NCBI GenBank assembly: GCA_963742415.1 | Contig: CAVULX010000004.1 | Coordinates: 448,001 to 512,000 of the forward strand | Length of the DNA stretch: 64,000 bases | DNA from: an uncultured Parachlamydiaceae bacterium | Lineage (GTDB): Bacteria; Chlamydiota; Chlamydiia; Chlamydiales; Parachlamydiaceae | Direction of reading: 5' to 3' | Shown here: one piece after another, positions 33,301 through 36,300 of the stretch | Layout of the letters: each line of letters starts with the position of its first letter | Numbering within the stretch: position 1 is the first letter of the stretch | Notes under the pieces: model-generated | The model's input: the letters and a program-made list of their open reading frames with translations, nothing else | Database searches by the model: none | Told to the model about the DNA's origin: nothing | Position numbers and translations under genes: made by a program

Positions 33301-36300
33301 AAAACGATTCTCGAAGATGCTCTAGCCTGTTTGGATAAGAGCGAGGAGGGGCTCGAACGTTGTGCGGAAATTTTAGCAAAAAAGCAAACCTTCGACCTGG
33401 AAAAGAATTGGATACTCAGTCTCTATCAAGGGATGACAAAGCAAATTTTGCGCAGTGATCCCGCGCAGGCCAAATTAATTCAAGACATAGCTAAAGAGAT
33501 ATTTAATGAAAAAGATGCAAAACGGTCTCAGGAAAAACTTAAGCAATTTTTCTTCGAATGCCAAGCCGGCGGAGGCAAAACAAAGGTCATCGCCATCCTT
33601 TTAGCTATCTTAGCAAAACGTTACGGCAAAACACCCGTCTTTATCAGCTTGTCCCAGCTTTTTGATATCACAAAGCAAGATCTTACAGATTCGGCCGACC
33701 TTTTAGCCCGAAAACTGTTCTTGCCGATCAATATGAAGTTGAATCAAAATCCCACTCTGAAAGAACTCTACGATCTCCTGGAAGCTCTTGAAAAAATGCC
33801 AGATTCCGAAAAATATCTTGGGATAGTAACTACGGCTGAAACCTTTCAAGCGATCACACTCGAATATGAGCTTGCTTTAATTTATGGAGAAGCTGAAAGA
33901 GTGCAAGTCTTAGACAAAATTTTGTGCTTCTTTGAAGATAATGCTATCGACTTAGTCGATGAAGGGCACCGGAACGCAAACCCTCTTTTTGAATGGAAAA
34001 TGGCTTTTGGAAAAGGGGAGCCGATCCCTGAATATGTCTCCGACCTTTACATCGAGTTCTTCCAATTTTTAATCGAAGACCCCTATTGGGAAAAGATTGT
34101 AGGACTTAAGGAAGGGAAGCAGACCCGTCTTTCCTCTGAACAGGTTAACGAGCTCAAGCAGGCACTGGCTACCCACTTTGCTAATAAGATTGTAAATAGC
34201 AAAGATCCTCAATTACTCCATTATTTAACCGATCTCAATGAGAAGCCCTCTGCTGAACTATTGGGTTTGAATGGAAGCAATAAAGAGGAAGATGTCCTTA
34301 AAGCTAAACAGCTCGCTGTCTTACGAGGATTCATTAACAAAATATTGCCCCATACCCTTGGGTTGGTCGAGGACATCGATCACGGTCCTTCAGTGGATCC
34401 AAGCAATGAAGTAGAAGCGCCTCGCAGTAGAAAGGAAAAAACATTGGCTAAATTTGAAAATCCGGAACTAAGCGTTGCTTTGACGATCAAAGGATTTTTA
34501 CAACGGGGCTTCACTAATCCAGGTCAAATGCAGCGTCTAGTCAAGTTTTTACGTGAGGATATGGAAAGGGAAAAATTAAAGGTTCCCTCTGGTGAATTAA
34601 CACCCACAGAAGAAAAATTTCTCTTGTGGCAAAAAGGTCAAAATATAAAAGTCGGTTTGACAGACCTGCCAGAAACAGCTTCAAAAACTACTTGGAATTC
34701 ACTTTTAGAGAAACTGAAAAACAATCCCGACTCCATCTTCGAATATTTAAAAGCCAAGCCTTTGATGGAGATCATCCTCTATCCGCTCAAAATCACCTCT
34801 ACAGCTTCCCGCTTTGCTTATGGCTTTTTTGGGAACATCTTTTTCTCGGCCACTTTGGGTCCTTTAGAAAAATACCCCTTTTTCGGCGATCCCAAATTTT
34901 ATCGTCGCGACCTTTCCTTCCTTGCCAAGGTGATGCAAGTCGGATCTTATACCCCTAATGATAAATTTGTTTGGTATGATTCGGATGAACCCGATTCTTT
35001 CTTTAAAAATTTGCCCCAAGATCTATTGCAAGAAAAGCGTTTAGAAGGGATCATCAACTTCGGCGGAGCCGCACCGGGAAAGAGCAACCGCGACTGGGCC
35101 GTTCACGCTTGCTCCTACTTCGAAACACATAAAATTCCTTTTGACGGTGTGGTCTATGTACACCAGGAGGTCGTTAACGGCCGCGAAGGGGAAAAAATCC
35201 TCTATCTGTTAGAGCGAAATAGTTCCACCCCAATAGCTTTGACAGGAAGCCGATTAAAAGAAGAACTGAAGAATATCGGAAAGGAGAATCTCAAGTTTTT
35301 CAAGGTCTATGGTCCAGAAGATACTACAGGATTGGATCTTGCCCTTGAGCCAAACGCTTTAATGGCGGTCACACTGGGTGAAAACCCCTCGACGGATGAA
35401 GTAGCTCAAGCCCTTCTTCGGATGCGCCAATTTATCAAACCACGAAAAAATCAAAAAGATGGACAAGGGGCTATCTGGTGCCTTCCAAAAGAGCTCAAAG
35501 AAAAAACGTTGCGCACTGTTGGCAAAGGCAACGACCAAGAGATCGATGCTAAAGATTGCTTCCTTTGGGCCCTCGATAACTATTGCAAAAGGTTGGAAGC
35601 TGAAATTGTAGCTGCAGCATTCCAAGAGCTAGAAGGGCTGTGCATCGAGATTGCTCGGATGGATATGCGAAAGAAGTCTGGAGCAGCACAGATTAAGTTG
35701 TTTAAAGACAAATATAGAAGCGGTTTTGTCAAAAAAGGCTCCTACGATCCTTTTGAAAATCACGGGCATTCGAGTGAGTTACGTCCTACAAAAGAAGTTT
35801 TACAACAATTTATGGACAATTGTTCTAAGTCGTACAATGTTGATTTAAAAGATCCTGCGCATGCATGGGCAAGCGCAAGAAAAGAGCAGATCATCACCCG
35901 TACCAGTGATGCAGTGCCTAATTTGCAAGAAAAACGTCAAAGCGCTCTCGGGGGGCAAACATTTGAAAGACAACGCACTCATGAGCAACAACAACAACGC
36001 ACAAAACACCATCAACAGGAGCAGAATCATGCTCAATTGAAAGTACAAAACATCTATAGCAATGTCCCTTCACGACCAGAGAAAAGATACGCCACTACAG
36101 AACTCGCGTTAATGCAAAACGATCTTTTGACAAAGACGGATTTTGTGCGGCCTGCCCGAGGCCATTTTGGAATTGAAGAGATTCCCGCGTCTTTATATTT
36201 AACTGTGGATGCTCTCCAGGCAACTAATGTGGAAGATGTATGGTCTATTCAAGGTTTAAAAGAAGCAGATCATCTTCTTATTGTTCAAGAGGGGAGTGAA

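Follow-up and report, generated by a model that had tools for sequence, protein, structure and literature searches.

The window analysed here, a stretch of 64,000 nucleotides from contig CAVULX010000004.1 of an uncultured Parachlamydiaceae bacterium, carries on its forward strand an intact gene for a protein of 3395 residues, termed P0001. With moderate confidence, we read P0001 as a divergent giant of the DUF3638 family in which a live motor is combined with a dead head and a membrane tether, and which is probably directed at the host. The motor, referred to as the engine, is predicted from its sequence to be a superfamily 2 (SF2) ATPase in which all motifs for nucleotide binding and hydrolysis are intact. 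The head is modelled as a cysteine-protease-like, clan-CE-like domain of the AnkH/AnkD type that lacks the nucleophile cysteine. Loss of this cysteine and the carboxy-terminal membrane hairpin are the uncommon traits of P0001; an earlier sequence-only reading of this DNA, which had noticed the engine, contained neither the protease-like head with its cysteine loss nor the hairpin.

The engine is a predicted tandem-RecA SF2 ATPase

The sequence-only reading had listed five motifs in SF2 order within positions 33500–35450, and a script recovered all of them at residues 2056–2671 (nucleotides 33562–35427). A Q-motif preceding motif I, absent from that list, was found in addition (Table 1). To the engine region of P0001 (residues 1990–2760) we aligned 21 homologous segments translated from related genomes. 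Across these 22 sequences, the G-x-G-K of motif I, the D-E of motif II, one further glycine, the glycine of motif V and the Q...R.R of motif VI were invariant, and the glutamine of the Q-motif was nearly so. Likewise, in a jackhmmer alignment of 154 rows Q2024, G2060, K2061, D2188, E2189, Q2671, R2675 and R2677 were 100% conserved. This invariance across the family indicates that the motifs represent a conserved core and not chance matches. The nearest full-length homolog is the ortholog P0003, at 41.7% identity over 3207 aligned columns; conservation between the two proteins is highest in the RecA domains, which share 61% identity.

The AlphaFold2 model of residues 1990–2760, calculated with the engine alignment, reached a mean predicted local distance difference test score (pLDDT) of 84.8 and a predicted template modelling score (pTM) of 0.81. 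It comprises a first RecA-like domain (RecA1; model residues ~60–215), a helical insert (223–470), a second RecA-like domain (RecA2; ~475–720) and a 40-residue helix (729–770). Domain-wise structure prediction had been chosen beforehand as the test that could refute an SF2-type tandem-RecA ATPase; as tandem RecA-like folds were modelled at residues ~2030–2700, it does not refute this claim of the sequence-only reading. Foldseek returned 114 PDB chains at E<=1e-3 for the engine model, the top ones all being SecA or SF2 helicases. SecA held most of the top ranks (1tf5, E=1.2e-8; template modelling scores (TM) of 0.37–0.42), followed by DinG, XPD and MDA5. VIA-align, run on the top 1000 Foldseek chains, placed SecA first with Z values of 17.7 (493 residues) and 17.4 (522 residues, root-mean-square deviation 4.4); the remaining SecA rows had Z values of 15.2–16.9 with 342–507 aligned residues, and the DEAD-box, NS3, RIG-I, INO80 and DinG rows had Z values of 15.0–16.2 with 295–358 residues. 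Based on the two modelled RecA-like folds and PDB matches spanning Z values of 15–17.7, the SF2 assignment is firm, and a likeness to SecA in particular is suggestive only. Sequence searches against the PDB gave 0 matches for the engine alone; the engine profile found PcrA as its best match (E=0.011), over the P-loop only, and no SecA.

The insert between motifs II and III contains a conserved block of its own at residues ~2330–2371 (34384–34509), where P2342 is conserved to 97% and F2353 to 90%. This block is probably the counterpart of Pfam DUF3645, judging from the offset of the DUF3645 match in the homolog P0014.

SecA (6itc_A, 3jv2_A and 1tf5) is thus the best solved match. Both SecA and the engine have a tandem RecA motor of the DEAD type with a large insert following motif II, and in both a long helix emerges from RecA2; we take the SecA insert to lie at the same position as the insert of P0001. 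In contrast to SecA, the P0001 insert is mostly helical with ~250 residues, and the engine carries DExH and LRPxQ motifs; the two share 9–11% identity at the TM values given above. Neither Pfam nor NCBIfam returned a match to SecA_DEAD, SecA_PP_bind or SecA_SW in P0001, which falls outside the SecA family. The DExH/ResIII helicases of SF2 (DinG/XPD, RIG-I/MDA5, type III restriction Res) have the LRPxQ, GxGKT and DExH motifs in common with P0001, and their folds matched with Z values of 15–16, with fewer aligned residues (295–358) than SecA (387–522). Unlike these enzymes, P0001 yielded no accessory nucleic-acid-binding or nuclease domains.

The lone Pfam match of P0001 was to ResIII (E=0.011 for the whole protein, 0.0036 for the engine segment), below every Pfam cut-off, and an NCBIfam scan returned 0 families. 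This weak match, the LRPxQ and DExH motifs and the presence of DinG, XPD and RIG-I/MDA5 among the fold matches would fit a helicase or translocase that acts on nucleic acids within a bacterial system of defence or repair. We consider such a role very unlikely, as PADLOC returned 0 families at E<=0.01, Pfam and NCBIfam found no nuclease or methylase domain, the neighbouring genes are of the F-box type and not defence genes, and the architecture is common to the giants of eukaryotes and giant viruses.

P0001 is a divergent DUF3638 giant

The sequence-only reading had further ascribed the engine to DUF3638-type domains. Its homologs, a paralog and the folds of giant-virus proteins speak for this assignment, whereas the Pfam model itself does not match P0001. 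Each of the 12 homologs retrieved with the engine region had a PF12340 match at E<=0.01; six exceeded the 31-bit cut-off, and one (P0014) also matched DUF3645. Among the 22 aligned engine segments, 20 matched PF12340 and four matched DUF3645. Six other giant open reading frames (ORFs) of the same genome match PF12340 as well. One of these paralogs, P0010, scored 44.5 bits on PF12340 at its residues 1651–1860 and aligned with P0001 over residues 1763–3091 (E=1.7e-77), its residues 1644–2058 corresponding to positions 1–422 of the engine query (phmmer E=4.3e-72).

The best BFVD matches of the engine model were giant-virus proteins named either 'DUF3638 domain-containing protein' or 'ubiquitinyl hydrolase 1', with E values of 1.8e-24 to 8.5e-18 and TMq of 0.56–0.72, far better than any solved structure. 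They stem from Harvfovirus, Hyperionvirus, Fadolivirus and Hokovirus (Klosneuvirinae-type). The DUF3638/DUF3645 giants (PF12340, PF12359), such as A0A3G5AAN1 of Hyperionvirus, A0A1V0SG42 of Hokovirus and A0A3G5A476 of Harvfovirus, the last auto-named 'ubiquitinyl hydrolase 1', share the engine fold over ~750–850 columns (E 1.8e-24 to 2.4e-16, TMq 0.47–0.72), the motif set, the giant size and the position of the engine about two thirds along the protein. Unlike the eukaryotic and giant-virus members, P0001 is bacterial, lacks the cysteine and glutamine of the head and ends in a hydrophobic hairpin. By transitive homology and modelled fold, P0001 is assigned to DUF3638 as a divergent member outside Pfam's own threshold.

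The family is catalogued in Pfam without an established function, and P0001 represents a new divergent member of it, not a new kind of system. In the available part of PMC12615304, the DUF3638 family is described in eukaryotes, with the statement that its 'mechanisms remain undefined', and our literature searches on DUF3638/DUF3645 found, among the items listed, passing mentions only and no functional study. The accessible text of a polymorphic-toxin survey mentions 'SecA-like helicase-related domains' in effectors of Amoebophilus in passing (PMC3482391).

The amino-terminal head has lost its nucleophile cysteine

For residues 1–600, AlphaFold2 gave a model of moderate confidence (pLDDT 68.8). 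An unbiased VIA-align comparison of the head with 48,161 chains ranked AnkD first (7ew8_A, Z 14.7, 258 residues), followed by AnkH (6mca_A, Z 13.4, 269 residues), the next match after AnkH having a Z value of 8.6. Foldseek likewise found LegA15/AnkD (E=2.8e-4). AnkH (6mca) and AnkD/LegA15 (7ew8, 7kj6) share the fold of the P0001 head over 258–269 aligned residues, and their order of His, Asp/Asn and Cys and the secondary-structure positions of these residues are those of the family head. P0001 differs from both in having no ankyrin repeats and in carrying serine in place of cysteine; identity is 10–12%, and the relation is undetectable by sequence. A head profile found no match among PDB sequences, and Pfam returned neither a common family nor DUF6606 for 19 head segments.

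According to the available part of PMC6712400, the clan-CE-like domain of AnkH has a triad of H243-D258-C324, in which His starts a strand, Asp ends the next and Cys precedes a helix, and no protease activity was detected in vitro. For LegA15, the part of PMC9757750 at hand gives H268-N290-C361 and describes an atypical GTPase whose activity was abolished by C361S. In our model of P0001, His149 opens a strand, Asp169 closes the next one and residue 283 lies just before a helix, so that residues 149, 169 and 283 of the predicted structure occupy exactly the AnkH triad positions.

The jackhmmer alignment gave, for the family columns of the head, 97% His, 87% Asn and a 'Q-R-S-G-x-C' motif in which Gln reaches 89% and Cys 94%. 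The full set H-N-Q-C was present in 100 of 122 head rows and the cysteine in 114, while serine took its place in six. P0001 is among these six, as are P0003 and P0004, the two relatives closest to it. The site, which comprises His149, Asp169, Gly278 and Ser283 in P0001, reads H-D-A-S in P0003 and E-N-A-S in P0004. An independent MAFFT alignment of 19 heads also placed Ser283 under the family cysteine column. The head shares 42% identity with P0003 at 3% gaps, which indicates that it persists as a folded domain, in keeping with a pseudo-enzyme that has been retained.

This conservation would also suit a head that is still an enzyme, with Ser283-His149-Asp169 as a working serine-type triad, which would make P0001 an ATP-driven hydrolase, that is, a protease, isopeptidase or acyl-transferase. 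His149 and the acidic residue 169 are kept, the serine falls exactly in the nucleophile column, and it is common to the three closest relatives and not scattered over the family. However, the oxyanion glutamine has likewise gone, being replaced by Gly in P0001 and by Ala in both P0003 and P0004; P0004 lacks the histidine as well, having glutamate instead; and in the closest solved relative, LegA15, the cysteine substitution described above removed the measured activity. We therefore consider an active head quite unlikely and favour the dead head.

The six other engine paralogs of the genome all lack a match to the head model, the match of P0001 itself being given by construction; the amino-terminal parts of the family thus differ within one genome. 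LegA7 was considered as a relative of the head and set aside, since the available part of PMC11423584 places it in another family of cysteine proteases, whose catalytic residues are ordered Cys-His-Asn.

The family is large and widespread in the phylum

P0001 had been described by the sequence-only reading as an orphan and as mostly unrecognisable, which our searches contradict. The word-indexed search with the engine region yielded the 12 full-length homologs, all of 2310–3764 residues, and the engine profile found 8582 of 1.84 billion cluster representatives (clusters at 50% identity) at E<=1e-3, of which 4014 were at E<=1e-30. Among the best 150 of the 8582, nearly all are 2000–4700 residues long and have the engine ~1800–2800 residues in.

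Furthermore, three modules besides the engine appear in the alignments as conserved family-wide. Module limits were derived from the coverage of P0001 by 153 family representatives, which amounted to ~120 for residues ~30–560 and was weaker up to ~950, to ~140 for residues ~1200–1500 and to ~150 for residues ~1800–3080. Residues 1000–1150, 1520–1700 and 3100–3395 are variable. A search of the ESM Atlas with residues 2760–3100 gave no usable match.

The genome itself contains seven engine copies in open frames of 2883–3943 residues, located on contigs C1, C2, C3 and C4. Two paralogs of ~3935 residues lie head to tail on C2 (48529–60333 and 60355–72168). A single-protein query matched 19 of 41 related genomes; in a genome-contig search, a single engine protein gave 82 pattern stretches, with 0 confirmed. 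Of 300 genomes drawn from across the phylum, the engine profile at E<=1e-10 matched 149, among them 25 of the 32 in the family of the window. In the family f20 (genus g52), the engine was found in 0 of 29 genomes, those listed being 1.0–1.2 Mb in size and 99% complete. In contrast to this small-genome family, most families of the phylum with larger genomes carry the engine.

The carboxy-terminal hairpin and the site of action

The family modules are followed in P0001 by a linker that is poorly conserved even in P0003 (residues 3081–3335; 23% identity, 33% gaps). The protein then ends in two hydrophobic segments at residues 3349–3368 and 3363–3392 on the Kyte–Doolittle scale, and by a crude hydropathy threshold a two-lobed hydrophobic domain as in Inc proteins is present at residues ~3336–3392. 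A two-lobed hydrophobic block is the defining mark of the chlamydial Inc proteins, which share with P0001 its length of ~50–60 residues. Unlike in Inc proteins, the block of P0001 is located at the extreme carboxy terminus of 3395 residues, and no similarity to a Pfam Inc family was found. By a crude hydropathy criterion, 13 out of 154 family proteins carry a comparable hydrophobic block within their final 120 residues.

Such a hairpin also fits a tail anchor in the bacterial membrane, and together with SecA as the best solved match it would be in line with an unsecreted SecA-like or helicase-like motor tethered in the bacterial inner membrane and serving export, envelope or nucleic-acid housekeeping. 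Several observations render this reading unlikely. The occurrence of the family in eukaryotes and giant viruses, drawn from the BFVD matches and the part of PMC12615304 available, argues against a bacterial housekeeping role. The hydrophobic tail is confined to the few members counted above, and P0001 has no SecA Pfam domain. In addition, seven divergent paralogs in one genome, along with no engine found in the 29 genomes of f20, form a pattern that fits accessory genes.

Proposed role and its weighing

In the role that we propose for P0001, the protein would be exported, most likely via a type III system, and the hairpin would tether it to the vacuole (inclusion) membrane with the bulk of the protein in the host cytosol. 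Powered by ATP, the motor would move along, or remodel, a polymer of the host as its substrate, which may be a polypeptide, by comparison with SecA, or RNA or DNA, by comparison with the DExH enzymes. The head would not cleave and could serve as a substrate-binding or regulatory pseudo-enzyme module. As SecA leads the solved matches but the motifs are DExH/ResIII-like, polypeptide and nucleic acid substrates are about equally likely. The label 'effector' is plausible, based on the markers of an intracellular lifestyle, the F-box neighbours and the carboxy-terminal hairpin; the TLC nucleotide transporters and the SctV-type (type III) export gates of the genome, the Chlamydiales label of the relatives, the seven engine paralogs and the wide spread in the phylum (149/300 genomes) further back a host-directed role.

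Several points weigh against this interpretation. Pfam PF12340, with its 31-bit cut-off, had no match at E<=1 on the whole of P0001 and none at E<=0.01 on the engine segment. The SecA likeness is modest, with the Z values of SecA and the other SF2 proteins lying within ~2.5 of each other at TM values of 0.37–0.42, and the LRPxQ and DExH motifs together with the weak ResIII match point to DExH/ResIII enzymes that act on nucleic acids. The confidence of the head model is moderate, with pLDDT values of 66–76 around residue 283, and for the closest solved heads the available parts of the two reports differ on activity, one describing a protease-like domain without in vitro activity (PMC6712400) and the other an atypical GTPase (PMC9757750). 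The Ser-His-Asp set could in principle be catalytic. The hairpin could equally be seated in the bacterium's own inner membrane, and with 3395 residues P0001 would be a very large type III substrate. Finally, the family counts come from the best 150 matches of a profile made of chlamydial sequences and are biased toward close kin.

The sequence-only reading had also named a toxin as a possible function. Chlamydial and clostridial-type cytotoxins of ~3000 residues offer a comparison in size, and the giant size of P0001 and its origin from an intracellular bacterium would suit a cytotoxin. This alternative is most improbable, since Pfam, NCBIfam and PADLOC detected no toxin, glycosyltransferase, nuclease or defence domain, Pfam and NCBIfam no protease-toxin domain either, and the sole enzyme-like part, the head, lacks its nucleophile. 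A possible connection of giant ATPases to the VTD deubiquitinases found in Waddlia and Simkania was dropped, the available part of PMC9741609 having 0 mentions of ATPase, giant or P-loop.

A bolder version of the host-directed role would see in P0001 a tail-anchored SecA-like SF2 motor that sits on the vacuole membrane, facing the host, and threads or unfolds host polypeptides such as ubiquitin-type conjugates. Its head, once a CE-type isopeptidase, would have turned into a receptor that captures these polypeptides without cleaving them. We regard this as a speculation with a small chance of being right. If true, P0001 would represent a class not yet described, that of effectors which remodel proteins at the expense of ATP, and would provide the first mechanistic handle on the DUF3638 giants of eukaryotes, giant viruses and chlamydiae. 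The family is very large (8582 clusters) yet neglected in the literature, and seven paralogs of 2883–3943 residues are a heavy investment for a 2.7-Mb genome. With an intact motor, a head without cysteine and a membrane tether, P0001 is a natural separation-of-function variant that can be used to ask for the motor's solo role and the family's site of action. Its engine is a defined domain of ~770 residues, expressible for ATPase and substrate assays.

Gene layout and genome context

Table 1 Features of the giant gene and its surroundings (window coordinates).
Feature	Residues	Nucleotides	Strand	Basis or remark
Tandem array of four paralogous genes		20482-25274	+	directly upstream of the giant gene; two with Pfam F-box matches
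Terminator-like hairpin		27241..27267	+	11 pairs then T run; between upstream gene (end 27204) and giant ORF
Whole giant ORF, P0001	3395 in total	27397..37584	+	intact, no internal stop
Cysteine-protease-like head, AnkH/AnkD type (predicted)	~40-385	27514..28551	+	AlphaFold2 model, VIA-align, Foldseek
Head site, His149	149	27841-27843	+
Head site, Asp169	169	27901-27903	+
Head site, Gly278	278		+
Head site, Ser283	283	28243-28245	+
Helical extension of head	386-560	28552..29076	+	covered by ~115-124/153 representatives; helices in model
Conserved middle module	~1200-1500	30994..31896	+	~105-143/153 representatives; 47% identity to P0003
Conserved pre-engine region	~1800-2019	32794..33453	+	118-153/153 representatives
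RecA-like domain 1	2020-2211	33454..34029	+	Q-motif, motifs I and II; 61% identity to P0003
Q-motif LRPxQ, Q2024	2024	33466-33468	+	34 residues before motif I
Motif I, QAGGGKT	2056	33562-33582	+
Motif II, DEGH	2188	33958-33969	+
Insert between motifs II and III, ~250 residues, mostly helical	2212-2460	34030..34776	+	secondary structure of model
Motif III and RecA-like domain 2	2461-2717	34777..35547	+	motifs V and VI; 61% identity to P0003
Motif III, SAT	2484	34846-34854	+
Motif V, TTGLDL	2643	35323-35340	+
Motif VI, QALLRMR	2671	35407-35427	+
Long helix from RecA2 (2718-2759), then post-engine module	2718 to ~3080	35548..36636	+	143-152/153 representatives
Variable E/S/K/P/T-rich linker	3081-3335	36637..37401	+	composition; outside family coverage
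Two-lobed hydrophobic hairpin	~3336-3392	37402..37572	+	Kyte-Doolittle

The terminator-like hairpin upstream of the giant gene suggests that the latter forms its own transcription unit, the terminator role of the hairpin being predicted from sequence; three such terminator-like sites were observed, against 0.3 expected in shuffled sequence. The four genes of the upstream array share 52–54% identity among the first three and ~30% with the fourth, and lie in a low-GC stretch (0.34–0.37).

The genome comprises 2.69 Mb on four contigs at 84% completeness and encodes four TLC nucleotide transporters and two SctV-type export gates. Relatives of P0001 are labelled '[Chlamydiales bacterium]' by NCBI, and the genome is that of a Chlamydiales-type bacterium with an obligate intracellular lifestyle. 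Among the sequencing runs listed, two DNA runs had small shares (0.14 and 0.09), and no RNA run appeared.

Just downstream of the giant gene, we observed a large, nearly perfect inverted repeat (37627–38149) with arms at 37627–37806 and 37963–38149. Segments of 111, 50 and 24 nucleotides within the arms are 100%, 98% and 96% complementary, respectively, and the inner segments are 156 nucleotides apart. The arm represents a dispersed repeat of ~110–140 nucleotides, of which more than 20 further copies with 80–96% identity occur on contigs C2, C3 and C4. From its sequence, the inverted repeat looks like a miniature inverted-repeat transposable element (MITE)-like or repetitive extragenic palindromic (REP)-like element.

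On the forward strand at 8517–19642, the secE-nusG-rplK...rplL-rpoB-rpoC cluster is split into many short ORFs in shifting frames, with the Pfam domains of the RNA polymerase β and β' subunits in at least ten separate pieces. The GC content reaches up to 0.50 in this region, and the EF-Tu gene at 7113–8231 encodes merely 372 residues. The 10-kb giant ORF next to this broken cluster is intact. As the broken genes are essential, local indel errors of the assembly or consensus seem more likely than real pseudogenes, and such errors may explain the completeness figure of 84%.

On the reverse strand at 41786–43959, an ORF matching Methyltransf_33 (EgtD-type histidine methyltransferase, E=6.6e-92) adjoins an ORF of 275 residues with DinB_2 and FGE-sulfatase matches. 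Judged by these domains, the latter looks like a truncated or split EgtB, and the pair like ergothioneine-pathway genes. An Abi_C-matching ORF is located on the forward strand at 40300–41228; its predicted start overlaps a tRNA gene (40300–40371), and its true start probably lies further downstream.

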